From assembly GCA_027306655.1 (NCBI GenBank), contig DAHUZL010000135.1, forward strand, positions 6,677 through 70,676: DNA of 64,000 nt, read 5' to 3'. Shown piece after piece: positions 3,760-43,275 of this stretch. The stretch is from Candidatus Dormiibacterota bacterium. GTDB lineage: Bacteria > Chloroflexota > Dormibacteria > Aeolococcales > Bog-877. The translations under genes and the position numbers were made by a program. The notes under the pieces are model-generated. The model did not search any database. It saw nothing but the letters and a program-made list of their open reading frames with translations, and was not told the origin of the DNA. Each line of letters opens with the position of its first letter. The stretch's first letter is position 1.

Positions 3760-3814
3760 CGGCCCGGGTCGGCGTTGGTCCGCGGTCTCACCCGTCCCGA
3801 GCGTCGTGCGACCA

Positions 3815-7637: not shown

Positions 7638-7638
7638 C

Positions 7639-23304: not shown

Positions 23305-23388
23305 CGCCCCATCCTAAGCACGCAGCCGACGCTCCCGTCGGAGGAGGAGCGCACCGGCCCGGGCCGCCGACCCGGTATGGTCCCCGGC

Positions 23389-26347: not shown

Positions 26348-26387
26348 CACCGTGCCTCCTTGGATTCGATTCGTGTCCCCGCCGCCG

Positions 26388-27758: not shown

Positions 27759-27878
27759 GCGAGACCCCCTGGTGGTGGCGAGTCGGCTCGGCGCGGCTAT
27801 CGGGCGCCGCCCGCCTGGTCACGGCGACGGCGCCCGGTCACTCCGTGCACCGGCACGATCCCCCCCCACGCTAAGCTC

Positions 27879-29486
27879 TGGCCCGTGGTGTGTCAAGTCG
27901 AGGACGGGGTGGGGGATCGGTTCGCCATCGCCACCCCCCACCGGGCCGCCACCGAGGCCGGCCGCGCGGCGTTCCAGGCGGGAGGGAGCGCGGTCGACGC
28001 CGCTCTCACCGCCAGCTGTGTGCTGAGCGTGGCCTACCCGCACATGACCGGGGTGGGCGGTGACCTCTTCGCGCTGGTCGCCCGCCCGTCCGGCGAGGTG
28101 GTGGCGGTGAACGGGAGCGGGGCGGCGGCGGCGGGGGTCGACCCCGCCGAGGTCCGCCGCCGCCACGGGACCATGCCCCACGACGGGCCGCTCGCCATCA
28201 CCGTCCCCGGCGCAGTGGCGGCCTGGGGGGTGCTGGAGGGCCTCGGCGCCCGCCGCGGCCTCGCCGACGCCATCGCGCCTGCCGCCCGCCTGGCCCGCGA
28301 GGGCGTCGCGGTCGCCCCCTCGCTGGCGCGGGCGCTCGCCGAGCCGGGCGCGGCCGTGGCCCGCGATCCCGGGCTCGCCGCGGTGTTCGTCCGCGACGGC
28401 GCGCCGCTCACGGCGGGGGCGACCCTCCGGGACCCGGCGCTGGCGGCCACCCTGGAGACCATCGCCCGGGACGGGCCCCCAGCGTTCTACCAGGGTGCCC
28501 TGGGCGAGCGATGGATCCGGGGGCTGCGAACCCAGGGAGCGCTCCTGGCCGAGGCCGACCTCGCCGCCCACCAGACCAGGTGCTCCGCGCCGCTGGTGGG
28601 TCGGTACGGCGAGACCGAGATCCTCACCGCCCCGCCCAACTCCCAGGGCTGCCTGCTGCTCGCGATCCTGGCCGTGGTCGAGCGCCTGGGGCTGGCCCGC
28701 GACCACCTCGGCTCCGACGCCGGGCGGCTGGCCCGGCTTTTCGCGGCGGTGACCGCCGAGCGCGACCGCGGCCTCTGCGATCCCGCCGGCGGCCCGGACT
28801 TCGCCGAGCGGCTGCTGGCGCCGGCCGGGCTGGACCGTCTGGCCGCCCAGGTGGACGGCTCCGCCCCGCCTCCGCCCGGTCCGCCGCCCGGCCGTCACCG
28901 CGGGGACACGGTGGCGGTGGTCGCCGCCGACGCCGACGGCACCGTCGTCTCCCTGAACCACAGCCTCTACGGTGGGTTCGGGTCCGGGATCCGCGAACCC
29001 CAGACCGGGATCATCGCCCACAACCGGGGGGCGTCCTTCGTGCTCGAACCCGGGCATCCCAACCGGCTGGCGCCGGGCCGGCGCCCGGCCCACACCCTGA
29101 TGCCGGTGCTGGTTCGGCGGGAGGGGCGGATCGCGGTCGCAGCCGGCACGATGGGGGGGAGCGCCCACCCGCAGATCCATGCGAGCCTCCTGCTGGCGTG
29201 CCTCGACCGGGACCTCGGGCCCGGCCCCGCCGTCGCCCTGCCTCGCTGGGTGGTCGGCGGCCTCGGCGGCGAGGCGGCTCCGGATGGGGCGATGCCGGTC
29301 GTGTTCGCCGAGGCCGGTGTCGGCGCACCGGTCGTGGCCTCGATCGAGCGGTCGGGCTTCGCCGTCCAGCTTCTGGGGCCGCTCGATGAGGGGGTGGGCC
29401 ACGCCCAGCTGATCGTGCGAGACGCGGCCGGTCTCCTCCGGGCCGGCAGCGACCCCCGCGCGGACGGCGGCGGGCTGGTGGGGTGA
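27879..29486 (+). CDS. ggt: Gamma-glutamyltransferase family protein
   Basis: 'GGDTVAVVAADADGTVVSLNHSLYGGFGSG' (Thr nucleophile) and 'TMGGSAHPQ'. A GTG start is inferred. The 5' 1.8 kb of the ORF is rejected as antisense shadow of the aminotransferase and aldehyde dehydrogenase genes. Confidence 0.75.
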   Translation, partial: WPVVCQVEDGVGDRFAIATPHRAATEAGRAAFQAGGSAVDAALTASCVLSVAYPHMTGVGGDLFALVARPSGEVVAVNGSGAAAAGVDPAEVRRRHGTMPHDGPLAITVPGAVAAWGVLEGLGARRGLADAIAPAARLAREGVAVAPSLARALAEPGAAVARDPGLAAVFVRDGAPLTAGATLRDPALAATLETIARDGPPAFYQGALGERWIRGLRTQGALLAEADLAAHQTRCSAPLVGRYGETEILTAPPNSQGCLLLAILAVVERLGLARDHLGSDAGRLARLFAAVTAERDRGLCDPAGGPDFAERLLAPAGLDRLAAQVDGSAPPPPGPPPGRHRGDTVAVVAADADGTVVSLNHSLYGGFGSGIREPQTGIIAHNRGASFVLEPGHPNRLAPGRRPAHTLMPVLVRREGRIAVAAGTMGGSAHPQIHASLLLACLDRDLGPGPAVALPRWVVGGLGGEAAPDGAMPVVFAEAGVGAPVVASIERSGFAVQLLGPLDEGVGHAQLIVRDAAGLLRAGSDPRADGGGLVG

Positions 29487-29644
29487 CGGCCATCGATGAG
29501 GCTGAGGCACCATGATAGGTCCTGAGTTTGTCCTCTCAGCCAGTTGACGAGGGCGACTCGCCCACGGCCTTATTGAGATCAGACGGTCGGGGCTAGAGTC
29601 ACCTCGGGCCGCCCTCGTCATCAACGGCACCGGGAGGGAGCACA

Positions 29645-31492
29645 GTGTTGGCGACGGGAGGTCGAAGGCGAGCCGGGCAGTGCCGGTATCCGGGACCGAT
29701 CTTGACGGGCGCCCTTGTGATGGGCCTGGTGGCGGGGTGCGGCCAGGTTGCGAGCCACGAGCCGGCCCGCCCAGCCGTCGCGGGCACCGTGACCTTTGCC
29801 GACGCGCCGGGCAACCCTCCGAACTACGTGTTCCCGCTCTTGTCCCTGGCCAACGACGCACCGGCGAATCCTGACGGATTTGTCAACCTCCTCTACCCGC
29901 CCCTGTATGCATTCGGGGTCGGTGACAAGCCGGTGGTGAACACGCGGCGCAGTCTGGCCGACCTTCCCACATACTCCAACGGCGGCCGGACGGTGACGAT
30001 CGATCTCAAGCCGTTCCGATGGTCCGATGGGTGGCCCGTCACCAGCCGTGACGTCCAATTCTGGCAGGACCTGGTCACAGCCAACAAGGCCAACTGGGTC
30101 GGGTACGTTCCGGGCGGCTACCCCGACAACGTGGTGCGTTTCCGACTTATCGGCCCACGTCGCTTCACCATCACATTCAACCGACCCTATGGCCGGTACT
30201 GGCTGCTCTACAATGAACTGAGTCAGCTATGGGCCATCCCGCAACACGCGTGGGACAGGACCTCTTCGGGGCAGCCGGTCGGCAACGCCGATCGGACTGC
30301 AGCTGGAGCGCGGGCCGTATACCACTTCCTCGATGCTCAGGCTCGTACCCTCACCACATACGCGAGTAACCCACTTTGGCGAGTGGTGGACGGCCCGTGG
30401 CGAATTGCCACCTACGCACCGTCGACAGGCTATCTGGCCCTGGTGCCCAACCGGCACTACGCCGGCCCGGACCGTCCGCACCTTGCCCGGATTGAGGAGA
30501 TTCCCTTTACCTCAGACTCGGCCGAGTTTGATGCCCTCCGCTCGGGCGCGATCGACTATGGGTACCTTCCCACCCAGGACCTTCCTCAGCTCAGCTACCT
30601 CACCCACCACGGCTTTCAGTTCCGACCCTGGATCGGCTGGGAGATCAGTTACATCCTGTTCAATTTTACGAATCCCCGGGAGGCGCCGCTTTTCGGGCAG
30701 CTATACCTGCGCCAAGCAATGCAACGGCTAGTAGATCAGCCAGCCTGGATCCGGGACATTCTCAAGGGTTACGGGTATGCCACGACCGGTCCGGTTCCGA
30801 CCCGGCCGCCGAGCACGTTCATCAGTCCCTTCGAATCCCGCATCCCATACCCATACAACCCGGGCTCCGCCATCCGCCTGCTTCGCGAGCACGGGTGGAG
30901 GGTGCATCCGGATGGAGTCACAATCTGCGCTCGGGGCGGATCGGGTGCGCATTCCTGTGGTCCCGGCGTGGCCCGCGGCGCAGCATTGGACTTCACACTG
31001 CTCCAAGCCAGCGGAAACCTTGCCATTCTGCAGGAGATGGAGGCATTCAAGTCGGAGCTGTCGCGCGTGGGGATCCAGATCTCGATCGCGCAGGCGCCTG
31101 AGGGTACGGTGGTGGCAGATACGGCGCCATGCACTCGAGCCACGGGGGCCGGCTGTAGCTGGGATCTCAGCAATTGGGACATCGGAGCCGACGGAAGCTG
31201 GCTCTATGGCCTCGACCACTATCCGACGGGTGGCGCGATTTTTGCCTCCGGGGCGGGTGCCAACGGTGGTGGCTATAGCGATCCTCACTCAGACGCGCTG
31301 ATCTCTGCCACCCATACGTCGAGCAGCCTCTCGGCCCTCTATCGATACGAGGACTATCTGGCCCGCCAGCTTCCGGTCCTGTGGATCCCGAACCAGGACA
31401 ATTACCTCACCATCATTCGCTCAAGCCTCCGCGGCGCACTCCCCCAGAATCCCTTTGGCACAATCGAGCCGCAGGATTGGCGATTCAACTGA
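29645..31492 (+). CDS. ABC transporter substrate-binding lipoprotein, family 5 (peptide/opine/nickel type)
   Basis: Lipobox 'LVAGCGQ'. 'RWSDGWPVTSRDVQFWQDLVTANKANW' is a family-5 signature. The gene lies inside the lower-GC island. Confidence 0.75.
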   Translation: MLATGGRRRAGQCRYPGPILTGALVMGLVAGCGQVASHEPARPAVAGTVTFADAPGNPPNYVFPLLSLANDAPANPDGFVNLLYPPLYAFGVGDKPVVNTRRSLADLPTYSNGGRTVTIDLKPFRWSDGWPVTSRDVQFWQDLVTANKANWVGYVPGGYPDNVVRFRLIGPRRFTITFNRPYGRYWLLYNELSQLWAIPQHAWDRTSSGQPVGNADRTAAGARAVYHFLDAQARTLTTYASNPLWRVVDGPWRIATYAPSTGYLALVPNRHYAGPDRPHLARIEEIPFTSDSAEFDALRSGAIDYGYLPTQDLPQLSYLTHHGFQFRPWIGWEISYILFNFTNPREAPLFGQLYLRQAMQRLVDQPAWIRDILKGYGYATTGPVPTRPPSTFISPFESRIPYPYNPGSAIRLLREHGWRVHPDGVTICARGGSGAHSCGPGVARGAALDFTLLQASGNLAILQEMEAFKSELSRVGIQISIAQAPEGTVVADTAPCTRATGAGCSWDLSNWDIGADGSWLYGLDHYPTGGAIFASGAGANGGGYSDPHSDALISATHTSSSLSALYRYEDYLARQLPVLWIPNQDNYLTIIRSSLRGALPQNPFGTIEPQDWRFN

Positions 31493-31521
31493 CGGCGGAG
31501 ACGGCGGCTGCCTTCCGCCAT

Positions 31522-32790
31522 TTGGAATTCCTCGCCGGCCAGTGTGGACCACGGCCGGCTGGATCACCGTCGGCGGTCAGGGCACGGGGGTACATTGCTG
31601 ATGCCCTCGAGCGCCTGGGGATGGATGTTGCAATCACGCCGATCTCTGCTCCGCGCTACGCCCTGGTGACGTCACGGCTCCGCGCCGCCAGGTCGGGAGG
31701 TTGGCGGGAAGTCGAGCACAAGCCGGTGTGGTTCGCCGGCGACACGGGATGCGACGCCATTCAGGCCGAGTTGGTCGACGGGGGGGACGGCAGCGAGGCT
31801 TTCCTTGGTGGCGGAGGCGTCGCTGACAAGGTTGTGTTGATCGCGCGCGATGTATACGTCGATTATCCAGACGTCGTCTTGACCGATCGGCTTCTACGGC
31901 ACCGGCCGGCCGCGGTGCTGTACACGACCAGGGCCGGCTACCAAGGCGGTCCCCCCGACGTGTACTACAACTATCGGACCGTGGAGAGTCACCCGCCCCC
32001 GCCTTCGGCGGTGATCGACTACGCGGCGGCACTGGATCTACTTCGGCGACCACCGAGGCTGGTCGAGTACCAGGCGCAGTACCGGGTCGAGGCGGGGACA
32101 TGCGCCCACGTCGTCGCCACCCTAGCGGGTTCCGACCCCCGCGCCGGTCGGGTCGTAGTGTGCGCTCACTACGACAGCGTTCCCGGGAGCCCGGGTGCCG
32201 CTGACGATGCCGGCGGGGTGGCTGTCGTGCTCGCGCTTGCCGAGCGCCTCAGTGCCCAGGCCCGCCGCGGCCAGCCTCCTCGGCAAACCGTGACCTTTGT
32301 GGCGTGGTCCGGACACGAGACGGGGGTTCACGGGAGCAGCCAGTTCCTCGGCCGGCATCCGGAGTTTGTCGCCAGCTGCCGCTTCGCGCTCAATTTTGAC
32401 GGGATTGGGAGCCGTCTCCACCTCAACCAGATGCTAGGCTGCGGCAGCCCGGAGGTGCTAGCGGCAGTCCAGGGGCGGGTCGCCGGGTGTGGGTATGAGT
32501 GGCCGATGTCCATAGGCCCGGGAGGGCTCGACGTGATCAACCTGACGGCCGTCGGCGTGCCTTGGGTCTCCTTGGGCCAGGGGTTGACCGCGTGGGCGCA
32601 CACGCCCCTCGATGACGTCGACAGCTGCAGCCCCGGCGCCCTTGCCGCGCCGCTGGTTGCGGCCTGGGCGATTTTGGAGTGGGCGGTCGAGGCGGCGGAG
32701 ATTCCGCGCGGGTACCCGCCGGCTCTGGCCGCGGACGCTGCCGAGTACTGTGCCCGGTTCGGTTGGGGGCCGATCGTGGACGAGGACTGA
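31522..32790 (+). CDS. M28 family metallopeptidase
   Basis: 'VVCAHYDSVPGSPGAADDAGGVAVVLALAERL ... VAWSGHETGVHGS'. A TTG start just after the SBP stop is inferred. The ORF's 5' portion overlaps the SBP gene. Confidence 0.6.
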   Translation: MEFLAGQCGPRPAGSPSAVRARGYIADALERLGMDVAITPISAPRYALVTSRLRAARSGGWREVEHKPVWFAGDTGCDAIQAELVDGGDGSEAFLGGGGVADKVVLIARDVYVDYPDVVLTDRLLRHRPAAVLYTTRAGYQGGPPDVYYNYRTVESHPPPPSAVIDYAAALDLLRRPPRLVEYQAQYRVEAGTCAHVVATLAGSDPRAGRVVVCAHYDSVPGSPGAADDAGGVAVVLALAERLSAQARRGQPPRQTVTFVAWSGHETGVHGSSQFLGRHPEFVASCRFALNFDGIGSRLHLNQMLGCGSPEVLAAVQGRVAGCGYEWPMSIGPGGLDVINLTAVGVPWVSLGQGLTAWAHTPLDDVDSCSPGALAAPLVAAWAILEWAVEAAEIPRGYPPALAADAAEYCARFGWGPIVDED

Positions 32791-32818
32791 TCTGTCCCAA
32801 CTCTACCGAGTGCGCGCG

Positions 32819-33214
32819 TCAGTCGCTGGAGGCGTCCGCTTGAACCTCGACCAGCCAGGCCGGGTCAACCAGCCGGGAAACCTCAACCAATGTGGATGGA
32901 GGCGGCGTGCTACCGAAGAAACTAGGCGCGATCGCACGCTCAGCGCGGAGGTACTCGTCCATGTCCGTGGTGAAGGTGTTGAGGTGGGTGACCGCTCGCC
33001 AGTCGAGGCCGAGGGCCCTCAGCGCCGTCGTCACCATCTCGTAGCAGCAGCGAATCTGCCCAGCCATGTCAGTCGCCACCAGCCGGCCCTCGGCGTCGAG
33101 CGCCACCTGACCACCGATGCGGTAGCTGTGGCGGCCATCCGCCACCGAGACGTGGCTGTAGAGGTTGTCGGTGGGCGGATGCAGGCCGATCGGGTTGCGA
33201 TACACTACGGTCAT
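32819..33214 (-). CDS. ridA: RidA/YjgF family protein
   Basis: Start at 'MTVVYRNPIGLHPPTDNLYSHVSVADG'. The gene overlaps the upstream DMFase-like gene by 4 nt. Confidence 0.75.
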   Translation of the reverse strand: MTVVYRNPIGLHPPTDNLYSHVSVADGRHSYRIGGQVALDAEGRLVATDMAGQIRCCYEMVTTALRALGLDWRAVTHLNTFTTDMDEYLRAERAIAPSFFGSTPPPSTLVEVSRLVDPAWLVEVQADASSD

Positions 33215-35469
33215 TGCGGCAGCGGTTCCGGGTCGCTGAATCGGCGCAGCACGTTGGCGGTGATGGTCGAGACGTTGTTGCGGTCCCCGTGGTGCGTCAG
33301 ACTGCCGCCCCACGCTATCGAGCCGACCGCGAAGACGCCCCCACCGGTCGCAGTGGCGTAGTAGGTGACGTCGGCACGGATGGCGGGGTTCTCGGCTGCG
33401 CCGGTCCCCGGTGAGGGCAACCCATCACCGCCGACGTAATTGTTGGAATGGCCCTCGGAGGACGCCAGCAACAGGGTGCCGGGTGGCGAGCCTCGGCGGG
33501 AGTCCATGCTGTCGATCTCGAGACCGGCGGCCCCGCCGCCTACCGCACCGAAATCGCCGATCCGTTCGTCGTCGGCCACGCCCTCAAAGATCCAGCTCGC
33601 GCGCGAGTCCTTGCTCCCGGGCTGGCGTCGATAGAAGGAGCAGCTGTCGAACCCTGATGCTATGTAGCCGAGCCCCATCAGCTTGTGGGGATCGCGGCCC
33701 GATAGCCGCCACGAGCCACCCACTTCGCCCGTAAAGGCGTAGTGGAACTCCCCTGGAAGCGCTTCCCAGTCGTTGCCGCCACCCCATCGGCGAATCTCGA
33801 CCAGATCGGGCCGGTGCGGGTGAAAGGCGATGCTGCCGTGGAATCCATTGCCGCCGAGATACACCACCCTCCCACCCTCGCACACGTACTGCTCGACCGC
33901 ATCCAGCATCGCGCCCGAGTAATACTCGGGGTGGCACCCGGTGACCACCGCGCGATAGGGGCGCAGCAGGTCTACGCCTTCGGTGTGGAGATCATCGTCG
34001 GTAATGACGTCATGCTCAAAGCCCTGACGGGTCATCCAAGATGAGATGCGCAGATCACCGATGAAGGTTCCCAGATTGAATCGATCCCAGCTGTCACGAC
34101 GCGGCTGCAGATTGAGGACCGGCCGCCGACGGGAGGCGAAGGCGACGCCGCTGCCGTCGCTGTGCGTGTCATAGGGCGAGAGCCCGAACTCGCGGTGCGC
34201 CGCCAAGAACAGCTCCTGGGTTTCAAAGACCAGGGTGCGGCCGAAATAGAGTTCGGTGAGCGGGACGTCGATGGCTCCGCGCACGTTGGCATAGACCGCA
34301 TAGGTGGCAGTGGGCGCGAGAAACGCGAGCGGCCTCGTCGCTTGGGCCGCTGAGGGCTTGACGAAGAGGGGGACGTAGTGGTCATCGAGTCCTTGCGCCA
34401 GATGGATGGCGTAGATGCCTGAGGTGGCATCCGGCGGCACCGTCATGCTGAAGTCCGGAAGCCATCGGGCATCGTCAAGATCGTCGTCATGGAAGTGGAT
34501 CGCGGCGTACTCGTCGGGGCGGTCGATGAAACGGACAGCCTTGCCTGTCCAGTTGTGGCCAGTGACCGCGCGGGTTGGCTGATTGACGGTCCGCCCATGC
34601 TGGTCTCGGCCGCTACTGTCGACGACGACATCAGTGGCGACGCCGCCGGAGTCGATGTTGGCCGCAAAGTTCCATCGGCCTACGAGTCCGTCGACCCGAT
34701 CGCCCCGAAGTACCCGGTCGATGGCGCGGGCCCCGAGTGCCCGATCCGCCAGCCATGGGCTCTCCAGCTTGCCATTGAAGTGGTGACGAGCCGCGCCGGG
34801 AAGAGCGCCGTCGGCGGTGGGGAGGGCGGCCATCATGAGCGGGATCGAGATCGTCTCCGCCTCCCCGGTGGGCGGGGACAGGGGCCAGCCTTGGCTGCCG
34901 TCCTCGATCGGAGTGACCCGGGCATAGACGTCCACCGGGCGCAGAGGAAGGGCCACCTGGGTGATCTGAACCGTGCCGACGGCAGGATCCACGATGGCTG
35001 CTACCCGATACCAGCAGCGCTCGCGCAGAGGCGCGCCGGCCTGGAAGCGCTGGGTCGCGCCTCCGGGGCCCCGGAGCCACAGTTCAGTCGCGGCGCTCTC
35101 ATTCACGACCAGGGCAAAGCCCGGACCTCCCGCGGGATCCCACCGTCCGAGAATGGCCTGGATACCCTGGCCGGGCTTGGTCGGCCAGATGAGGGCGCCC
35201 AAGGATAGGCCGGTCCCTGGTCCGAGGGCGGGGTGGGCTGGCACTATCACATGCGACCCGGACCATGCCCGCTGATGCCGCCCCGGGTAGTGACCATTGC
35301 CGACCGCGTCGACCCCAATCTCGGGATGGGTCGGTCCGCCCGGATCCTGATCGGAATGCTCCAGGCGGACCAGCCGGGCCGCATAGGTGGATGACGCCTC
35401 CGTTGACACCATGACCTGGACCGTGTCGCCCGGCCGCACGCTCCAGCGATCGGAGTAGCCACAGATCAT
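33211..35469 (-). CDS. N,N-dimethylformamidase large (beta) subunit-like protein
   Basis: 752 aa. The size and the N-terminus 'MICGYSDRWSVRPGDTV' resemble the DmfA2 family. It follows a 128-aa partner gene with a 4-nt overlap. The family assignment is made from memory. Confidence 0.55.
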   Translation of the reverse strand: MICGYSDRWSVRPGDTVQVMVSTEASSTYAARLVRLEHSDQDPGGPTHPEIGVDAVGNGHYPGRHQRAWSGSHVIVPAHPALGPGTGLSLGALIWPTKPGQGIQAILGRWDPAGGPGFALVVNESAATELWLRGPGGATQRFQAGAPLRERCWYRVAAIVDPAVGTVQITQVALPLRPVDVYARVTPIEDGSQGWPLSPPTGEAETISIPLMMAALPTADGALPGAARHHFNGKLESPWLADRALGARAIDRVLRGDRVDGLVGRWNFAANIDSGGVATDVVVDSSGRDQHGRTVNQPTRAVTGHNWTGKAVRFIDRPDEYAAIHFHDDDLDDARWLPDFSMTVPPDATSGIYAIHLAQGLDDHYVPLFVKPSAAQATRPLAFLAPTATYAVYANVRGAIDVPLTELYFGRTLVFETQELFLAAHREFGLSPYDTHSDGSGVAFASRRRPVLNLQPRRDSWDRFNLGTFIGDLRISSWMTRQGFEHDVITDDDLHTEGVDLLRPYRAVVTGCHPEYYSGAMLDAVEQYVCEGGRVVYLGGNGFHGSIAFHPHRPDLVEIRRWGGGNDWEALPGEFHYAFTGEVGGSWRLSGRDPHKLMGLGYIASGFDSCSFYRRQPGSKDSRASWIFEGVADDERIGDFGAVGGGAAGLEIDSMDSRRGSPPGTLLLASSEGHSNNYVGGDGLPSPGTGAAENPAIRADVTYYATATGGGVFAVGSIAWGGSLTHHGDRNNVSTITANVLRRFSDPEPLPQ

Positions 35470-35852
35470 GTGGGGAACACGGGCACACCGAGGTCGCTCA
35501 AGCGGCGGCAGAAGACCATGTGTTCGGCCTCGGCACGGGAGGTTGCGGCCAGGTCGGGAACTCGCTCCGGTGGCGTCTGGCGATCTCCGGAGAGCACGAC
35601 AACACCGAACAGTTGGTCTGGCTCCAAGGCGACGATCCCATACTGCCCCCGCTGCTCCCCGTGATTGCGGCGCAGGTATAGGAGGATGCGTTCCAAGTGA
35701 GGCGAGTGCGGTCCGAAGGGGTTATGGCGGTGCTCGGCGACGAGCTCCGGTGTAACCAGCGGACGGAGATGGTCCTCGAACAGCCGACGATCGGCGGCCC
35801 GGTAGGCAGCGATCTCAGGCGGATCGGGTGACACGCCGCCGACCGTTGCCAC
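35466..35852 (-). CDS. N,N-dimethylformamidase small (alpha) subunit-like protein
   Basis: 128 aa, translationally coupled upstream of the large-subunit-like gene. The small-plus-large arrangement mirrors dmfA1-dmfA2. Confidence 0.45.
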   Translation of the reverse strand: MATVGGVSPDPPEIAAYRAADRRLFEDHLRPLVTPELVAEHRHNPFGPHSPHLERILLYLRRNHGEQRGQYGIVALEPDQLFGVVVLSGDRQTPPERVPDLAATSRAEAEHMVFCRRLSDLGVPVFPT

Positions 35853-35853
35853 C

Positions 35854-36858
35854 TCAGATCCCGACCGTCTGTGGGGTGAGCCGTTCGGGGCTCGCGCCCG
35901 GGCTGGCCGTCACCGCGAGCAGACCGAGCATCTCGTAAACGAGGTGAGCCGCGGTGAGGCTGGTGATCTCTGCGTGATCGTAGGCGGGAGCCACCTCTAC
36001 CACGTCGCCCCCCACGAGTGGAAGGCCGCGAAGCGCCCGGAGGGTGCCGAGTAGCTCCCGGCTACTGAGCCCACCAGCCTCGGGAGTGCCGGTTCCGGGC
36101 GCGTGCGCCGGGTCGAGCACGTCGATATCGACCGACACATAGACCGGGGCCGATCCGACCCGGGAGCGAATGGTCTGAGCGACGGATTGGCATCCCCCGT
36201 CATCATAGGCCGCTGCCGGTATCACATCGAAGCCCAGCCGCGTGTCGTCGGGCAGGTCCCGTTCCGTGTATAGGGGGCCCCTGATTCCGATGTGAACCGA
36301 TCGCCCATCCAACAGCAGTCCCTCCTCCGCCGCCCGACGGAAGGGCGTCCCGTGAGTAAAAGGCGCACCGAAGTAGGTGTCCCACGTGTCGAGGTGGGCA
36401 TCGAAGTGTACCAGGGCCACAGGGCCTGAATGCCGATTCAAAGCGCGGAGGAGAGGAAGTGCGATCGTGTGGTCACCGCCGATGGCAATCAGGCTCCGAG
36501 CCTTGAGCAGGACGGACTTGGCCGCAGCCTCGATCTGCTCGAGGGCAACGGTGATGTCGAAGGGGTTGCAGGTGACGTCGCCGACATCGACGACCTGCTG
36601 GCGGTCAAACGGTGCGACCGCAAGTCCGGGGTGGTAGGGGCGCAGCAGCCGGGACCCCATCCTGACCGCCGCTGGCCCGAATCGGGCCCCGGGCCGATAT
36701 GAGGTGCCGCTGTCAAATGGTACGCCAAGGATCGCCACGTCCCACCGTGACACCTCGTCCCCACGCGGGAGCCTGGCAAAGGTGGTGGGCCCGCCAAAGC
36801 GGGGCACCGTCCGCCCATCCACCTGGCCGACCGGGGGTGGTGGTTCGGAACTAGCCAT
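35854..36858 (-). CDS. Ureohydrolase (agmatinase/arginase/guanidino-acid hydrolase family)
   Basis: 'GGDHTIALP', 'HFDAHLDTW', 'VSVDIDVLDPAHAPGTGTPE', 'GGLSSREL' are the binuclear Mn ligand motifs. The start was chosen at 'MASSEPPPP' (36858). Confidence 0.8.
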   Translation of the reverse strand: MASSEPPPPVGQVDGRTVPRFGGPTTFARLPRGDEVSRWDVAILGVPFDSGTSYRPGARFGPAAVRMGSRLLRPYHPGLAVAPFDRQQVVDVGDVTCNPFDITVALEQIEAAAKSVLLKARSLIAIGGDHTIALPLLRALNRHSGPVALVHFDAHLDTWDTYFGAPFTHGTPFRRAAEEGLLLDGRSVHIGIRGPLYTERDLPDDTRLGFDVIPAAAYDDGGCQSVAQTIRSRVGSAPVYVSVDIDVLDPAHAPGTGTPEAGGLSSRELLGTLRALRGLPLVGGDVVEVAPAYDHAEITSLTAAHLVYEMLGLLAVTASPGASPERLTPQTVGI

Positions 36859-37018
36859 CTCCCTCACGGCCGGAGCTGTTGACCACGGGGGTGGAGCGGA
36901 CGGTTCTGGTGCAGATGCAGGTGCGGGCATGGGGGGTGGGCGAGACTGACCCGTAGAACTGTGGCCGGCCGGCTTCCTTCGGCGCAATTGGCCGACCGAC
37001 CAAGTCAGGATCCCGACC

Positions 37019-38665
37019 TTGGCCACGGCGGTGGCGCCGGAGCCGAAGCCGCCGGCGAGCGTCGACCAGCGGCCTGCTGTAGAGTGCTCCACCTTGACCA
37101 TCACCGTCGCGGACCTGATCACCATGCCCCATCTCGGCATCTCGGTTCGTGCGGGGGCGGGCGGGCTCGCCGCCCGGGTGTCTTGGGCCCATGTGAGTGA
37201 GCTGGAGGACCCGACCCCGTGGCTGGAGGGGGGAGAGCTGATTATGACCGCCGGAATGGCGGTACCTCGGGGCGCGGCCCGCCAGAAGGCCTACGTCGAC
37301 CGACTGGCTGCACGAGGCGTGGCCGCAGTAGCGATCTCCCAGGACCTCTATGCCCCCGCCGATATGACCGCCCTTCTTGCAGAGGCGGACCGGCGCTCAT
37401 TTCCGGTCCTCGACGTGTCGATCGAGGTCCCGTTCCTCGTCATCACCCGGGTGGTGGCTACCGCCAACCAGGCCGAATCCCAGCGTCGTCTCGTTACCCA
37501 CCTGCAGATCTTCGACTCGCTGCGAGCAGCGTCGCGGGAGGGGCTCGAAGCACGGGCTCTGTTCGACCGCCTGGAGCGGCTCTCAGGATATCGCCTCTTC
37601 CTTGGGACCCCATCGGGGAAGGAGCTCCTGCCCGGGGTGAGCGCGCCCCCAGCCTCGTCGGCCTCGCTCCTCCCGCGGCCCACTGGTGCCTCACCGGAGA
37701 TCCCGGGTGGCTACGCAGTCTCGGTCCCCGTGGCTGGCCGCACGGCCGGCTACCTGGTGGCCCTGCAGACAGACGGCGCGCGTGGCGTCGGACTGTCTGG
37801 AGTCCAGCACATCGCCACCATCGCCGCCCTTCAGGTCGCCAATCTTGACCGCGAGCGCGAGAGTCTTCGGCGTGCCGGCGCCGAGACGCTTGCGGAGCTG
37901 CTTGCCGGAGTGTTGGACCCCGGAGTGGCCCAGAAGCGGCTGGACCTCGCCGGTTTCGACGTCAGCAAACCGGCGGTCTTGGCGGTGATCCGGAGCCGTG
38001 GGGCACCGCTCGATGATCAAGGCGTCGCCAGAGCCCTCATCATGAGTTCCCTTACCCACCTGCTCCTGTTTCAGCGTGACCTTTGGCTGCTCACGCCCGC
38101 CGATCCTGGGCCGGCAGCTGCACTGGGCGCCGTGGAAGGCACCGTGGCAGGGGTCAGCGCACCCTTCAATCCGGCAGAATCGCTGGTTCGCCCCCGTCGC
38201 CAGGCGACTTGGGCTCTCCAGCGTGCACTCGACCGCGGGTCAACTCTGGCGCACTTTCACGAGGCAGAGGCGGCGCTTGCGTGGCTTCCACCCGACGCCG
38301 ACTCCCTCAACGGCCTCGTAGACCAAGTGCTCGGTGCCGTCGTGCGCTACGAGCCTCCCCGAGGAGCCGACCTGCTGCGATCCCTGAGTGTCTGGCTCGA
38401 GTCGGAGCGCCGAACCGAAGCTGCCGCACGGATCCTCGGAGTCCACAAGCACACCCTGGCCTACCGGCTCAGCCGGGTCGAGTCCCTCACGGGCCGAGAC
38501 CTCAGTCGAGTGCGAGACCTGGCGGATGTGTGGCTGGCCATGCGCGCGCTCGCCATTGTGGCGCCGAACCTGCTTGAGGGTGAGCGAACGGTTGGACGTC
38601 GCCGCCGGGGAAAGGGACTGACGGGTCACCTGCCCGATCACGATGTTGGTCTGCCAGGCCACTGA
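37019..38665 (+). CDS. PucR-family transcriptional regulator
   Basis: PucR-like N-terminal domain ('LGISVRAGAGGLAARVSWAHVSELEDPTPWLEGGELIMTAG') and C-terminal HTH ('AAARILGVHKHTLAYRLSRVESLTGRDL'). It is divergent from the ureohydrolase operon. Confidence 0.7.
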   Translation: MATAVAPEPKPPASVDQRPAVECSTLTITVADLITMPHLGISVRAGAGGLAARVSWAHVSELEDPTPWLEGGELIMTAGMAVPRGAARQKAYVDRLAARGVAAVAISQDLYAPADMTALLAEADRRSFPVLDVSIEVPFLVITRVVATANQAESQRRLVTHLQIFDSLRAASREGLEARALFDRLERLSGYRLFLGTPSGKELLPGVSAPPASSASLLPRPTGASPEIPGGYAVSVPVAGRTAGYLVALQTDGARGVGLSGVQHIATIAALQVANLDRERESLRRAGAETLAELLAGVLDPGVAQKRLDLAGFDVSKPAVLAVIRSRGAPLDDQGVARALIMSSLTHLLLFQRDLWLLTPADPGPAAALGAVEGTVAGVSAPFNPAESLVRPRRQATWALQRALDRGSTLAHFHEAEAALAWLPPDADSLNGLVDQVLGAVVRYEPPRGADLLRSLSVWLESERRTEAAARILGVHKHTLAYRLSRVESLTGRDLSRVRDLADVWLAMRALAIVAPNLLEGERTVGRRRRGKGLTGHLPDHDVGLPGH

Positions 38666-38767
38666 GTGGAGTTCGCGATTGTGTTATCGGCCAATTGCCA
38701 TGTCCATCGGGGCGGGTCACACTCGGCCCCGTACAGGGGCGTCGACCGACGCGTGGGGGATTTGGGG

Positions 38768-40591
38768 ATGATTACATTGGGTGGCCCGAGCCGACGGATC
38801 GGCCCGATGCTCAGTCTGGTGGGGTTGATGGCCGCGCTGGCGGCCTGCGGCGGCGGGCTGCCGTCCCGCACGGCGGCGGGTCGCACTCAGGGCACGGTCG
38901 TCTTCGCCGAACCGGCCGGATCGCACCCGACCTACATCTTTCCCCTAGACTCGCTAGCCTATTTTTCGACAATCAACCTGAACCAGTTCCAGTACCTCAT
39001 GTGGCGGCCTCTGTACTGGTTTGGCAGTGGCTCAAAGGTCGTGCTGAATCAGCAACTGAGCTTGGCTTACCCGCCGCAGTTCATCGACGGAAACGGGAAG
39101 GTCGTAATACGACTCAAGCCGTACCGCTGGTCCGATGGCCACCCAGTCACGGCCCGTGACGTCCAGTTCTGGATGAACCTGCTCAAGGCCAACAAGGCCA
39201 ATTGGGGAGAGTATGCCGGCCCTGGCACATTCCCGGACAACGTCGCCAAGGTCACCATCGACAACGCGACCGAGCTGACCCTCACGCTCACCCATGCCTT
39301 CTCACCCACTTGGTTCACATTCAATGAGTTGAGCCAGATTACCCCCATTCCACAGCACGCCTGGGATCGCACGAGCTCAGGTGGAAGCGTCGGAAACTTT
39401 GATGACACTCCCAAAGGCGCCGTGGCCGTTTACAACTTCCTCAACCATCAGGCCGAATCGCTCACTACTTACACCACCAACCCACTCTGGCGGGTGGTCG
39501 ATGGCCCATGGGTTCTTCACACCTTCAACACCACAGGGTACGCCGCCTTCCGCCCTAACGTGAACTACTCGGGTTCGGTCAAGCCTCACCTACGCGAATT
39601 CGTCGAGATGCCGTTCACCTCCGAGACGGCAGAGTTTGACGCCCTCCGGGCCGGAACCATAACATACGGCTACGTTCCGCTCCCCGATGTAAGCCAGATT
39701 CACGCGGTCAGGGCAGCGGGATTCACGGTCCATCCGTGGTATCTGTGGTCGATGAACATCATTCCGCTGAATTTCCACAATCCCGTGGCGGGCTCCATTC
39801 TCCGTCAGCTCTACGTGCGTCAGGCGATCCAGTCGCTCATCAATCAGACTCTGTACCTACGCGCGGCGCTGAAGGGCTACGGCGCTCCAGATTACGGTCC
39901 GGTGCCGATCTATCCGCCCAACCCGTATGCAAGCGCCTACGAGCGGGCGAATCCCTATCCATTCAACCCAGGGCACGCGGTGAGCTTGCTTAGGCGGCAT
40001 GGCTGGCGCGTCCGGCCGGGAGGCGCCTCTACGTGTGCCGATCCTGGGCCGCGGCAGAGCCAGTGCGGGGTGGGTGTGGTCCGCGGCGAGCGGCTGGAGC
40101 TCAACATTCTGTACTCGGCCGGGATCGTCTGGATCAGTCAGGAAATGCAGGCTCTCAGGTCTAGCCTGTCGCTCGCGGGGATCCAGCTCAACCTTCGAGA
40201 GGCGCCGTCGAATACAGTCGTATTCACGCCGATTCCGTGCACGGCCAAGCAGCCGGTCTGCAGTTGGCAGTTGGTGTTTTGGGGAAACGGATGGGAGTAT
40301 GCTCCGGATAACTACCCGACCGGAGGTGACGCCTTTCACACCGGCGCGGTCGGCAACTGGGGCAGCTACAGCAATCCTACCGCCGACCGCTTGATTGCGG
40401 CGACGCACTACCAGACTGGTGAGGCGGTGCTGGTTCGGTACCAGAACTTCATCGCCGCGCAGATCCCGATGCTGTGGATGCCGATTGCCCCCTATCAGAT
40501 CTCCGCCATCCGCGACACCCTCCACGGGGCCACGCCGCAGCCCGTTGACGGGGTTTCGCTCACTCCAGAGGCGTGGTCGCTGAGACGCTGA
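38768..40591 (+). CDS. ABC transporter substrate-binding lipoprotein, family 5, a paralog of the 29645 gene
   Basis: Lipobox 'LAACGGG'. 'RWSDGHPVTARDVQFWMNLLKANKANW' and 'TTNPLWRVVDGPW' are shared with the first SBP. A later start (M at ~38807) is possible. Confidence 0.75.
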   Translation: MITLGGPSRRIGPMLSLVGLMAALAACGGGLPSRTAAGRTQGTVVFAEPAGSHPTYIFPLDSLAYFSTINLNQFQYLMWRPLYWFGSGSKVVLNQQLSLAYPPQFIDGNGKVVIRLKPYRWSDGHPVTARDVQFWMNLLKANKANWGEYAGPGTFPDNVAKVTIDNATELTLTLTHAFSPTWFTFNELSQITPIPQHAWDRTSSGGSVGNFDDTPKGAVAVYNFLNHQAESLTTYTTNPLWRVVDGPWVLHTFNTTGYAAFRPNVNYSGSVKPHLREFVEMPFTSETAEFDALRAGTITYGYVPLPDVSQIHAVRAAGFTVHPWYLWSMNIIPLNFHNPVAGSILRQLYVRQAIQSLINQTLYLRAALKGYGAPDYGPVPIYPPNPYASAYERANPYPFNPGHAVSLLRRHGWRVRPGGASTCADPGPRQSQCGVGVVRGERLELNILYSAGIVWISQEMQALRSSLSLAGIQLNLREAPSNTVVFTPIPCTAKQPVCSWQLVFWGNGWEYAPDNYPTGGDAFHTGAVGNWGSYSNPTADRLIAATHYQTGEAVLVRYQNFIAAQIPMLWMPIAPYQISAIRDTLHGATPQPVDGVSLTPEAWSLRR

Positions 40592-40692: not shown

Positions 40693-43275
40693 ATGCGCCC
40701 GGTCAGCCAGTTCACGGTCCAGCCCCGGCTCCCGGGGCCGCTCGAGCCGCTCCAGGAGCTGGCCGAGAACCTCCGCTGGACCTGGCATCGTCCGGCTCGC
40801 GACCTGTTCCGGCGGCTGGTGGACGAGGGCGGCGAGGTGCACCGCAACGGTGGGGCGGGCCTGGTGGGCGCCGACGGCGCCGTCAACCCGCTGCTGGCCC
40901 TCGCCCGGGCGGGGCGGGAACGTCTGGACGCGCTGGCGGCGGACCCGGGGTACGTGGCCCAGGTGGCGGCCCAGGCCGAGGCGCTCGACGCGTACCAGCA
41001 GCAGCGGCTCTGGTTCCAGACCGATGGGCCGCCCGGGCTCGGCACCGTGGCCTACTTCTCACCGGAGTTCGGGATCAGCGAGGCCATCCCCCAGTACTCG
41101 GGCGGTCTCGGGGTGCTCGCGGGCGACCACCTGAAGGCCGCCAGCGATCTCGGCGTGCCCCTGGTCGGGGTCGGGCTGCTGTACGCGGAGGGCTACTTCC
41201 GGCAGGAGCTCGACGAGTCGGGCTGGCAGCGCGAGCGCTACGTCGCGCTCGATCCCGAGCTCCTGGGGCTGCGGCCGGTCGCCGGGCTCGAGGTGCAGGT
41301 GGAGCTGGCCGGACGACCGCTCGCCGCCCAGGCCTGGCGGGCCTCGATCGGGCGGGTCCGTCTGTACCTGCTCGACACCGACGTGCCCGCGAATCCCCCC
41401 GACCTGCGCCGTCTCACCGACCGTCTCTACGGCGGGGACATGGAGCACCGGCTCTGCCAGGAGATCCTCCTCGGGGTGGGCGGGATCCGCGCGCTGCGCG
41501 GGGCCGGGGAGGCGCCCACCGTCTTCCACACCAACGAGGGGCATGCCGGCTTCCTCGGCCTGGAGCGGATCCAGGAGCTGGTCGTGGGATCGGGGCTCTC
41601 GTTCGACGAGGCGGTGGAGGCGGTGCGGAGCGCCACCGTCTTCACCACCCACACCCCGGTTCCGGCCGGGATCGACCGCTTCCCGGTCGAGCTGATGCGC
41701 CGCTACTTCGCCCCCCTGGCGGAGGCGTGCGGCATCCCCTTCGCGCGCCTGATGGCAATCGGCCACCACCCGGATGAGCCCGAGGAGGCGCCTTTCAACA
41801 TGGCGGTGATGGGCCTGCGCCTGGCCGGCCACGCCAACGCCGTCTCCCGCCTGCACCAGGCGGTGAGCCGCACCCTCTTCGGCGGGCTCTGGCCGGAGGT
41901 GCCGGCGGCGGAGGTCCCCATCGGCGGCATCACCAACGGTGTCCATCCCCGCAGCTGGGTCGCCGAGGACGTGGACCGGCTGCTCACGCAGCACCTGGGC
42001 CCGGATTGGGACCAGGCGACGGCGGAGCGGTGGGCTGGGCTCGCCGCGGTGCCCGACCAGGCCCTCTGGTCGCTCCGGGAGTCGGGTCGCGGCCGATTGG
42101 TCGCCGCCGTCCGGGCGCGGCTGCGGGCGAGCCAGCTCGCCGTCCCCTCGGGAGGGGGCGACCTCGCCTGGTGGGACGAGGTCCTCGACCCCTCCGTGTG
42201 CACGATCGGCTTCGCTCGCCGGGTGGCCGAGTACAAGCGCGCGACCCTCCTGCTGAGCGATCCGGGCCGGCTGACCCGGCTCCTCACCGACCCGACCCGA
42301 CCGGTGCAGCTCGTCTTCGCGGGCAAGGCCCACCCGGCCGACGAGGTCGGCAAGCGCATGATCCAGGAGCTCGTCCGGTTCGCCGCCGATCCCGCCGTGC
42401 GCCACCGGATCGTCTTCCTCGAGGACTACGGCATCGACCTCGCCCGCGCCCTCTACCAGGGGGCCGATGTCTGGCTCAACACGCCGCGGCGCCAGCAGGA
42501 GGCATGCGGCACAAGCGGCGAGAAGGCGGCGCTCGGGGGCGGTCTCAACTGCTCGATCCGGGACGGGTGGTGGGACGAGGGCTTCGACGGGGAGAACGGC
42601 TGGGCGATCCCCTCCGCCGACCCCGCGCTCGACCCGGCCGAGCGCGACCGCCGGGAGGCCGCCGAGCTGTTCTCGGTGCTGGAGGACAGGGTGGTGCCGC
42701 TGTTCTACGCGCGCGACGGCGGCGGGGTGCCGGCCGGGTGGGTGGCCCGCGTCCGTCACGCGCTGATGGTGCTGGGGCCGTTCGTGAACGCCGCCCGGAT
42801 GGTGAGGGAGTACGTGGAGGCCAGCTACGCCCCGGCCGAGCGACGGGGGGCCCGCCTCGCCGCCGACGGGTTCGCCGTCGCCCGCGACCTGGCCGCGTGG
42901 AAGGCGAATGTGCGGGCGTGCTGGCCCCAGCTCCGGATCGAGGGGGTGCGCGGGCCGGGGGCGCCGCCCGCGCTGGGCGCCCGTGCCGAGGTCGAGGCGC
43001 GGGTGGCGCTGGCCGGCCTGCGTCCCTCGGAGCTGCAGGTCGAGCTGGTGCATGGGGCGATCACCGACGGCGGCGAGATCGACAATCCCGGCCGCGCCCC
43101 GATGGCGCTGGTCGACCCGGAGATCTCCGGGGATGGCGCCCGCTACCGGGGACGCTTCGTCTGCGACCGCGCCGGACCCTACGGGTTCACCGTCCGCGCG
43201 ACCCCGGTCCATCCCGAGCTGGCGAGCCCGCTCGAGACCGGGTGCATCGCCTGGGCCCTCCCGGAGGAGCGATGA
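40693..43275 (+). CDS. glgP: Alpha-glucan (glycogen/maltodextrin) phosphorylase, GT35
   Basis: 860 aa. 'AYFSPEFGISEAIPQYSGGLGVLAGDHLKAASDLGVPLVGVGLLY' and 'GEKAALGGG' (PLP-Lys region). Confidence 0.85.
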   Translation: MRPVSQFTVQPRLPGPLEPLQELAENLRWTWHRPARDLFRRLVDEGGEVHRNGGAGLVGADGAVNPLLALARAGRERLDALAADPGYVAQVAAQAEALDAYQQQRLWFQTDGPPGLGTVAYFSPEFGISEAIPQYSGGLGVLAGDHLKAASDLGVPLVGVGLLYAEGYFRQELDESGWQRERYVALDPELLGLRPVAGLEVQVELAGRPLAAQAWRASIGRVRLYLLDTDVPANPPDLRRLTDRLYGGDMEHRLCQEILLGVGGIRALRGAGEAPTVFHTNEGHAGFLGLERIQELVVGSGLSFDEAVEAVRSATVFTTHTPVPAGIDRFPVELMRRYFAPLAEACGIPFARLMAIGHHPDEPEEAPFNMAVMGLRLAGHANAVSRLHQAVSRTLFGGLWPEVPAAEVPIGGITNGVHPRSWVAEDVDRLLTQHLGPDWDQATAERWAGLAAVPDQALWSLRESGRGRLVAAVRARLRASQLAVPSGGGDLAWWDEVLDPSVCTIGFARRVAEYKRATLLLSDPGRLTRLLTDPTRPVQLVFAGKAHPADEVGKRMIQELVRFAADPAVRHRIVFLEDYGIDLARALYQGADVWLNTPRRQQEACGTSGEKAALGGGLNCSIRDGWWDEGFDGENGWAIPSADPALDPAERDRREAAELFSVLEDRVVPLFYARDGGGVPAGWVARVRHALMVLGPFVNAARMVREYVEASYAPAERRGARLAADGFAVARDLAAWKANVRACWPQLRIEGVRGPGAPPALGARAEVEARVALAGLRPSELQVELVHGAITDGGEIDNPGRAPMALVDPEISGDGARYRGRFVCDRAGPYGFTVRATPVHPELASPLETGCIAWALPEER

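Follow-up and report, generated by a model that had tools for sequence, protein, structure and literature searches.

What is a relative of N,N-dimethylformamidase (DMFase) doing in an operon with a ureohydrolase and a Rid-family protein? The question is raised by four consecutive genes on a 64,000-nucleotide stretch of contig DAHUZL010000135.1 from Candidatus Dormiibacterota bacterium (assembly GCA_027306655.1), the whole of which is here called the window. The defining substrate of the enzyme family, N,N-dimethylformamide (DMF), is synthetic, yet DMFase homologs are encoded in many hundreds of bacterial and archaeal species, the substrates so far assigned to the family being xenobiotic or biotechnological only. 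The available evidence is that the four-gene operon is real and is apparently the core of a conserved, previously undescribed cassette, which, as a general scheme, is rather likely to serve the catabolism of an imported, peptide-like, amide-linked guanidino compound. The four open reading frames (ORFs), in operon order, are as follows.

36858..35854, minus strand: first ORF, arginase-family ureohydrolase (PF00491), apparently of the guanidino-acid hydrolase type, 334 amino acids (aa)
35852..35466, minus strand: second ORF, DMFase small (alpha) subunit, 128 aa, with a 6LVB_B match and a precomputed PF26354 DMF_alpha match
35469..33211, minus strand: third ORF, large (beta) subunit of a DMFase-family Fe amidase (PF20254 DMFA2_C), 752 aa
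33214..32819, minus strand: fourth ORF, Rid-family protein of a Ser-type subfamily (PF01042), overlapping the large-subunit gene by 4 nt

Direct reading of the sequence gives a 1-nt gap between the ureohydrolase stop codon and the small-subunit start, a 4-nt ATGA overlap between the small and large subunits, and a further 4-nt ATGA overlap between the large subunit and Rid, so that both this reading and the ORF calls bear out the coordinates and the 1-4 nt junctions of a preliminary description of the locus, made from the sequence alone. A promoter and terminator scan gave no site above chance inside the four-gene unit. Comparison with hidden Markov models (HMMs) supports every family assignment of the four operon genes, unambiguously for three of the four. 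The broad idea of the preliminary description, i.e. that a guanidino or amide compound, small and rich in nitrogen, is taken up and degraded, is right, and is strengthened by the recurrence of the gene combination elsewhere; several of its details, as described below, are wrong.

The large subunit is a member of the DMFA2_C family (PF20254, E = 6.9e-84, 282.9 bits against a cut-off of 27), which aligns end-to-end with the large chain of Paracoccus DMFase (6LVB_A, E = 1e-161, residues 2-751, 38% identity) and also matches PDB 8HUY (E = 4.6e-125, 37% identity). The identity to 6LVB is enough to establish the fold. The small subunit matches 6LVB_B (E = 2.2e-4) as well as PF26354 DMF_alpha in precomputed form, with no match in a scan of the local Pfam copy. 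The two-subunit DMFase-type architecture proposed earlier is thus borne out for both chains. It is also borne out by gene context, in that, of 80 loci in other species, 52 have a small-subunit homolog directly upstream of the large-subunit gene and on its strand, three have one elsewhere nearby and two have it fused to the large subunit, as judged by an iterative HMM built from neighbouring ORFs with large-subunit ORFs excluded. About 24 of the 80 loci have no detectable small subunit. Natural fusions of DMF_alpha and DMFA2_C were seen in P0087, P0101 and P0108, and in L048 (13192-15765) and L051 (7405-9993).

Such enzymes had been thought rare and characterized only for DMF hydrolysis, neither of which holds. 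Species representatives yielded more than 587 loci, with at least 1407 protein clusters at E <= 1e-20 among 8000 candidates scored, and the family has at least two further characterized members. AceAB of Pigmentiphaga sp. D-2 is a two-subunit DMFase homolog that cleaves acetamiprid and is without DMF activity (PMC11573777), and an N-acetyl-(R)-beta-phenylalanine acylase (8HUY) belongs to the family by sequence and has the same catalytic residues. What all the characterized members remove is an acyl or imidoyl group of one or two carbons (C1-C2), carried by a substituted amine, the substrates being DMF (PMC7686228), acetamiprid (PMC11573777) and, as a third, N-acetyl-beta-Phe (PDB 8HUY).

In Paracoccus DMFase the Fe ligands are Y399, Y440 and E521 (a 2-Tyr-1-Glu arrangement), the catalytic residues are H519, N547 and E657, F693 acts as a gate, and the small subunit is required for activity (PMC7686228). 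All six of the Fe-ligand and catalytic residues are kept in the window large subunit, as Y393, Y433, E515, H513, N541 and E651, respectively, and these positions are invariant in a 30-sequence family alignment; the gate position, by contrast, is Leu. It is therefore suggested that the window amidase keeps what is needed for catalysis, small subunit included.

The ureohydrolase matches PF00491 with E = 8.6e-93, and its ranking against enzymes of known structure, i.e. GpuA (5.4e-79, 268.8 bits), GbuA (3.5e-77, 262.9 bits), PAH (2.3e-72) and SpeB (2.6e-61, 210.7 bits), places it nearest to GpuA, GbuA and PAH. The equivalents of the six binuclear-metal ligands of GbuA (H129, D152, H154, D156, D243 and D245) are all present. 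In GbuA, R72 caps the neighbouring active site and has been proposed to bind the acidic group, carboxylate or sulfonate, of the substrate (PMC9772407), and W68 of Escherichia coli SpeB is an agmatine-binding residue of the cation-pi type (PMC8125230). At the R72 position the window enzyme has LLRPYH, compared with MIRPYN in GbuA and LAWEH in SpeB, and the Arg is kept in all 13 of the cassette ureohydrolases that cover the position, window included. Because the GbuA Arg is kept, the enzyme looks like a guanidino-acid hydrolase rather than an agmatinase; the Trp68-type residue of SpeB is replaced and the match to SpeB is weaker than those to the guanidino-acid hydrolases. The NCBIfam agmatinase models are nevertheless passed (NF002564, 309.6 bits versus 302; another, 232.6 versus 174.3). 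That the protein is an arginase-family Mn enzyme, as first described, agrees with the intact metal site, but the release of a formimino group, also considered then, does not agree with a score of 134 bits against the HutG model, the cut-off for which is 229. The 334-aa start at 36858 is backed by the N termini of homologs, including that of L094 ('EPPVG' matches); the public annotation has a shorter, 268-aa call (P0121).

The fourth gene product clearly has the Rid fold (PF01042, E = 2.3e-16, 60.3 bits, cut-off 27.3), but its preliminary naming as a RidA enamine/imine deaminase could not be sustained. Against the RidA model TIGR00004 it scores 28.9 bits, with a cut-off of 106.25, and in every alignment to archetypal RidA structures the Arg105 of RidA (motif PARS) is Ser107 in the window protein (PPST), Ser-Thr occupying the position in 41 of 41 Rid sequences. 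The conserved Rid positions Y19 and E123 are retained. The work of Niehaus et al. has shown that imine hydrolysis requires this Arg, no activity being known for Rid subfamilies without it (PMC4433059), such that imine deaminase activity cannot be assumed for this distinct, Ser-type subfamily. In the literature searched, clustering of Rid genes with ureohydrolases or peptidases is not reported, nor are DMFase-family enzymes linked with ureohydrolases.

The genes on either side of the operon, and the divergent intergenic region, are as follows (GC3 being the GC content at third codon positions).

29645..31492, plus strand: SBP_L, a family-5 solute-binding protein (SBP), lipoprotein (PF00496, E = 1.1e-36; lipobox LVAGC; GC3 0.74)
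31477..32790, plus strand: M28-family metallopeptidase, 437 aa (PF04389, E = 5.5e-28, 98.5 bits, cut-off 21.3)
36859..37018: divergent intergenic region of 160 bp between the ureohydrolase operon and the PucR gene, presumed to be regulatory
37019..38665, plus strand: PucR-type regulator (PF07905, N-terminal, E = 8.2e-25; PF13556 HTH_30, C-terminal, E = 7.3e-17)
38666..40591, plus strand: SBP_R, a second family-5 lipoprotein (PF00496, E = 6.3e-33; lipobox LAAC; GC3 0.77)

The PucR-type regulator is thus, as had been noted from the sequence, adjacent to and divergent from the operon; in the 160 bp between them there is no match to a sigma-70 consensus, and a palindrome scan gave short palindromes only, none above chance. 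That two SBPs flank the operon also stands, with assignment to family 5 (SBP_bac_5), but the label 'opine-type' is unsupported for what are very divergent family-5 proteins. The two are paralogs (47% identical); SBP_L is 43% identical to the SBPs of two related loci described below (L093 and L094), and SBP_R is 49% identical to that of L093. The SBP_L and M28 genes share 16 nt. Translation of SBP_L probably begins at a codon further downstream than 29645, and that of SBP_R, the ORF of which begins directly after the PucR stop codon, is likely to begin near 38768. The M28 protein has no evident signal peptide and resembles aminopeptidases such as YwaD.

Recurrence was sought with several of these genes in turn as anchors. 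The large subunit is uninformative in this regard: identity to its best non-self homolog is 46-49%, its nearest relatives (P0004, P0006 and P0007) are stand-alone pairs of small and large subunits, and neighbours of M28, SBP or PucR type were not found in the 80 generic DMFase-like loci (L005-L084), searched with tblastn and phmmer. The commonest neighbour in these loci (26 of 80) is a PotA-type ABC ATPase with PotB/C-like permeases, which may hint at imported small amines or amides as substrates for the wider family; genes for enoyl-CoA hydratase, CaiB-type CoA-transferase and amidase-signature enzymes occur less often. The informative anchors are M28 and Rid. The M28 subfamily is rare, with seven full-length relatives (40-52% identical) among 5.8 billion clusters, and in four of five contexts (L093-L097) a guanidino-group hydrolase is encoded within ~7 kb of the relative. 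One of these, L094, has the order M28, ureohydrolase, Rid, SBP5, small subunit, large subunit and two permeases, together with two Opp-type ATPases and a regulator with helix-turn-helix (HTH) and cupin domains; its identity to the window is 64% for Rid, 64% for the ureohydrolase, 49% for M28, 43-44% for the SBP and 34% for the large subunit. In L093 the M28 gene, SBP5, a full ABC importer, Rid and an HTH-cupin regulator are accompanied by a DDAH/ADI-superfamily enzyme and an OTCase, which replace the ureohydrolase and the amidase (61% identity to the window for Rid, 49-52% for M28 across L093 and L094, 43-49% for the SBPs). The M28 gene lies within ~7 kb of an arginase-family gene in L095 and of a DDAH/ADI-family gene in L096; a guanidino enzyme was not found at L097.

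A metagenome scan with the Rid alignment gave 39 loci (55-69% identity), of which 13 have a ureohydrolase within two genes of Rid and 11 have a DMFA2_C-family gene. The DMFA2_C gene is of a long form in L106, L125, L126, L129, L133 and L136, and of a short, ~540-aa form in L106, L118, L119/L120, L130 and L134. The gene order is SBP5, small, large, Rid, ureohydrolase and short DMFA2_C in L106; large, Rid, ureohydrolase and a PucR homolog in L125; large, Rid and ureohydrolase in L126, L129 and L133; and large then Rid in L136, the adjacency of large subunit and Rid thus being conserved, window included. The loci with the short form alone encode it with Rid, and all of these except L118 have a ureohydrolase too. 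All cassette ureohydrolases retain the metal ligands and the R72-equivalent Arg. Complete Opp/Dpp-type importer systems are present in L093, L094 and L119. Other partners of Rid are amino-acid permeases (eight loci), SBP5 with an M81 MlrC-like peptidase (six loci), NCS1 permeases and amidohydrolase-type, dipeptidase-like proteins. The core of Ser-type Rid, ureohydrolase and DMFA2_C, with or without M28, SBP5 and PucR, is thus present in at least nine distinct metagenome contigs.

Two substrates suggested by individual loci were considered and set aside. Degradation of microcystins or other cyanopeptides, suggested by the M81 peptidases, does not accord with a score of 132 bits against an MlrC cut-off of 999. 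Methylated arginine (asymmetric dimethylarginine giving dimethylurea), suggested by the 'DDAH' Pfam matches of L093 and L096, is weakened in that the protein falls far under every dimethylargininase, arginine dihydrolase and ADI cut-off. As a separate observation, L095 (Lentibacillus sp. N15, 3485-11305) has, with its M28 relative and arginase-family gene, an aldehyde dehydrogenase, an MlrC-like M81 peptidase and a PF04199 'cyclase', i.e. an amidohydrolase of the kynurenine-formamidase type; this is another small-acyl amidase, where the window has the DMFase-like enzyme.

The amidases of the cassettes are not of one lineage. Three DMFA2_C lineages are joined to the same Rid-ureohydrolase core, and the occurrence of different lineages on the same core argues for functional coupling rather than chance. 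In a distance tree the long form of the cassettes (the C4 cluster: L094, L106 and L133) forms its own deep clade, the window large subunit is a long branch in a generic clade that also holds Paracoccus DMFase, and the acylase is another deep branch. The short form, examples of which are at 8140-9762 in L119/L120 and 5838-7437 in L106, and in L130, L134 and L118, carries Arg where DMFase has the Fe ligand Y440 and is without the N-terminal domain, and a small subunit was not detected with it; its sequence implies a different metal site or mechanism.

Despite their separate positions in the tree, the window enzyme and the C4 cluster share residue losses. Conservation within the generic clade reaches at least 90% at 163 alignment columns; the window enzyme deviates at 16 of these and C4 at 27, and the deviations coincide at 8, compared with 2.7 expected (Fisher p = 0.001). 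Each of the two has lost four of the 29 conserved aromatic columns, three of them in common: W473 of DMFase is Gly in the window and Glu in C4, Y550 is His in the window and His/Ser/Ser in C4, and W551 is Gly in the window and Thr/Met/Met in C4. The latter two are three and four residues after the catalytic N547. The DMFase papers describe a pocket constricted by bulky aromatics, of which they name only F693. The common losses suggest the signature of a remodelled, de-aromatized pocket in the window enzyme and C4. On the same residues, i.e. Leu for F693 and Gly, His and Gly for W473, Y550 and W551, the window enzyme falls outside DMFase sensu stricto.

Taken with the gene context, these properties allow a pathway to be proposed, in which we infer how the steps follow one another, what kind of compound is the substrate, what Rid does and how expression is regulated. 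The two family-5 lipoproteins would capture a guanidino-bearing, peptide-like compound, which would be imported via Opp/Dpp-type permeases; these must be encoded elsewhere, since the window has none, the sister cassettes encoding their own. In the cytoplasm the M28 metallopeptidase and the Fe-dependent alpha/beta amidase would cut amide bonds. By analogy, the amidase may remove a small acyl group from a substituted nitrogen, a role proposed because the three characterized family members act in this way, or may cut an N-substituted amide that is resistant to ordinary peptidases. The resulting omega-guanidino acid would be split by the GbuA/GpuA-like ureohydrolase to give urea and an amino acid. 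The Ser-type Rid, which is nearly always encoded beside the amidase or the ureohydrolase, may assist at or after the amidase step, perhaps by handling an unstable nitrogen intermediate, and is probably not a canonical 2-aminoacrylate deaminase. The divergent PucR-type regulator would control expression. A scheme that involves an arginine monooxygenase and 4-guanidinobutyramide, prompted by the gene contexts of close ureohydrolase homologs, was considered and rejected as a misfit with the small-acyl chemistry of the characterized DMFase-family enzymes.

Several observations weigh against this pathway. The window large subunit is 34-35% identical to those of the other cassettes, versus 42-49% to generic members, and is thus not orthologous to the former, such that the association of the window amidase with the cassette could be more recent or looser. 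Ureohydrolase and Rid neighbours number only two each among the 80 generic loci. The ureohydrolase orthologous group is very abundant, with thousands of relatives, and its closest members (65-72% identical) lie mostly in unrelated contexts, e.g. with ornithine cyclodeaminase, alone, or with an amidase-signature enzyme; the enzyme may therefore be a general guanidinobutyrase. Permease and ATPase genes are absent from the window, and Rid subfamilies without the Arg lack demonstrated activity (PMC4433059). The locus counts are soft, many contigs being short and L119/L120 and L131/L132 being near-duplicates. That W473, Y550 and W551 line the pocket is our own reading, which the DMFase papers do not state, and the functions proposed for the amidase, the ureohydrolase and Rid, substrate included, rest on sequence and gene context.

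A more specific proposal can be made only tentatively, with a probability well below even: that the DMFase family has a natural role in guanidino-compound catabolism, shared with a ureohydrolase and with a Rid enzyme of a new, Ser-containing type, in which the amidase acts either on an (N-substituted) urea or to unblock an N-acylated, arginine-derived natural product. The urea variant, in which the amidase would follow the ureohydrolase and convert urea or an N-alkylurea (R2N-CO-NH2, an analogue of DMF) to amine or ammonia and carbamate, so mineralizing the guanidino group, is by itself somewhat less probable still. It accords with the packing of the ureohydrolase and amidase subunits for translational coupling, with an ordinary urea product being plausible for a ureohydrolase of common type, and with the hydrolysis by DMFase of formamide and N-alkylformamides, which are isosteric with ureas, but Paracoccus DMFase showed no activity with urea (PMC7686228 for both). 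The loss of three aromatics suggests a substrate larger or more polar than a small urea. Likewise the exchange in L093 of the ureohydrolase and DMFA2_C for a DDAH/ADI-family enzyme and OTCase fragments could represent an alternative two-enzyme route, but the DDAH/ADI-like protein is far below every curated cut-off, leaving a methylated-arginine substrate unsupported, and Rid-ureohydrolase loci without a DMFA2_C gene exist (L128 and L131/L132).

Those same loci are one reason to consider a ureide or oxidized-purine-type substrate, such as a guanidino-substituted hydantoin or a ureidoglycine-like compound, in which case the 'peptidases' would be carbamoyl or ureido amidohydrolases and Rid would hydrolyse a gem-diamine or imine. 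In L128 and L131/L132, Rid and the ureohydrolase are accompanied by NCS1 permeases of the allantoin/hydantoin type and two amidohydrolase-superfamily enzymes, but the best-scoring model for the L131 amidohydrolases is that of a dipeptidase, and most cassettes, like the window, rely on family-5 SBPs, with Opp/Dpp-type permeases and oligo_HPY ATPases. The chemistry of Rid proteins suits imine-type intermediates (PMC4433059), but the present Rid is without the catalytic Arg. The regulator, being of PucR type, would also fit a ureide. PucR-type regulators, however, control many amine and amino-acid pathways. Overall, a substrate of this type appears improbable.

More improbable again is that the genes are unrelated neighbours on a mobile block, i.e. 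a general guanidinobutyrase or agmatinase and a separate small-amide amidase linked by chance. Members of the ureohydrolase group usually stand alone, as do generic DMFase-like pairs, and the cassette lineage holds no ortholog of the window large subunit; against this, the genes overlap or abut in a manner suited to translational coupling, at least nine distinct contigs have a member of one of three DMFA2_C lineages beside a common Rid-ureohydrolase core, and active-site-proximal substitutions are convergent. The weakest alternative, a genuine DMF or N-methylformamide degradation operon, can hardly be entertained, in that, despite the retention of all the Paracoccus DMFase catalytic residues and of a small subunit, identity to DMFase is 38%, F693 is Leu, W473, Y550 and W551 are lost, AceAB lacks DMF activity even with higher similarity to DMFase (PMC11573777), the annotated parts of the window show no genes for dimethylamine or C1 metabolism, the amidase being surrounded instead by a ureohydrolase, a peptidase and binding proteins of peptide type, and DMF as a synthetic solvent should need no ABC importer (PMC7686228, with our own reasoning). 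The natural substrate of the window amidase is almost certainly not DMF.

The operon and its neighbours differ in composition from their surroundings. The GC content of the window is ~75% and falls to 63-68% at 30-40 kb, where the eight genes between 29,645 and 40,591 (in order SBP5, M28, Rid, large subunit, small subunit, ureohydrolase, PucR and SBP5) have GC3 values of 0.74-0.82, compared with 0.93-0.96 in the flanking genes, for a gamma-glutamyltranspeptidase and an alpha-glucan phosphorylase; the composition shifts sharply at ~29.45 and 40.6 kb. This ~11-kb island with foreign codon usage is probably one horizontally acquired unit. A tRNA or integrase was not found in the island or at its borders, and neither a permease nor an ABC ATPase gene was found in the island, which has, of an Opp/Dpp-type importer, the two SBP_bac_5 proteins only. 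Four independent short-read contigs (L001-L004) match window positions 29443-36742 and agree with the island at 99.8-99.96% identity. Every one of them stops within the island or at its left edge, and only one reaches the left border, by ~44 nt, so that the junctions are weakly corroborated by independent assemblies. The ends could reflect assembly breaks in the ~78% GC flanks or strain-variable presence of the island. A 14-nt near-identical direct repeat, TCAGCCAGTT(G/C)ACG, is present at both island edges (29536-29549 and 40703-40716), the right copy falling within the opening codons of the glucan phosphorylase gene. Such a repeat could be a remnant of the insertion site or, there being many 14-nt matches in the region, a chance match.

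Further from the operon, the plus-strand ORF at 26004-29486 has a gamma-glutamyltranspeptidase domain (E = 4.8e-104, residues 657-1155 of 1160 aa) and a native composition (GC3 0.93). Its N-terminal 650 aa are without a Pfam match, probably because the ORF is over-extended or includes a separate gene. At 44100-45827 (plus strand), ~0.8 kb downstream of the glucan phosphorylase gene, lies the gene for a full-length DUF6909 protein (E = 4.1e-187), and the product of 22930-23931 (plus strand) has a C-terminal THAP4-like haem-binding beta-barrel domain (E = 1.3e-27).

With respect to significance, the cassette ties DMFase homologs and Arg-less Rid proteins to a guanidino-acid ureohydrolase, peptidases and peptide-type importers, recurs with three independent amidase lineages, two with convergent pocket changes, and makes the function tractable by way of four small genes. 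If the specific proposal is correct in its urea variant, there would be a nickel-independent route from a guanidino group to ammonia, and in either variant a first biochemical function for arginine-less Rid proteins. The results also warn against annotating such genes as 'dimethylformamidase', 'agmatinase' or 'RidA'.

Comparison with known systems reveals likenesses for each component, set in different contexts. The window Rid shares with RidA (the YjgF/YER057c/UK114 family) the PF01042 fold and the Tyr and Glu positions, but has an invariant Ser for the catalytic Arg and is far under the model cut-off. The ureohydrolase shares its metal ligands and R72-type Arg with GbuA and GpuA of Pseudomonas aeruginosa (3NIO and 3NIP) and with human GDAH/AGMAT; compared with GbuA/GpuA, its gene is in an operon with an amidase and Rid, rather than with genes of the arginine dehydrogenase/transaminase pathway. 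The arginine deiminase/dihydrolase-type route of L093 has the same framework of M28, SBP5 and Rid as the window, and its enzymes also attack the guanidino group; they are, however, of another superfamily, and DMFA2_C is absent from the contig, which is cut off at the OTCase gene and thus has an incomplete gene set.

In the case of the amidase, Paracoccus DMFase (DmfA1/DmfA2; 6LVB) is like the window pair in having its small-subunit gene directly upstream of and overlapping the large-subunit gene, and in its Fe site, His, Asn and Glu. It differs in its gate and in the other aromatics described above, at 38% identity, and in that the surroundings of the window pair are ureohydrolase, Rid, peptidase and SBP genes, not C1 or methylamine genes. 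AceAB, compared with the window by description only, likewise has two subunits and shows that the family can cut non-DMF, N-substituted C-N bonds without acting on DMF (PMC11573777); it differs in that its substrate is a synthetic xenobiotic and in that a link to guanidino metabolism is not reported. The acylase (8HUY/8I59) is on a separate deep branch, at 37% identity, keeps Y550 and W551, and has only the large chain listed in its PDB entry. As in the window enzyme, however, it is a DMFA2_C protein with the same catalytic residues and with Leu in place of F693. Its reaction, deacetylation of an N-acyl amino acid, is the chemistry proposed here for the window amidase.

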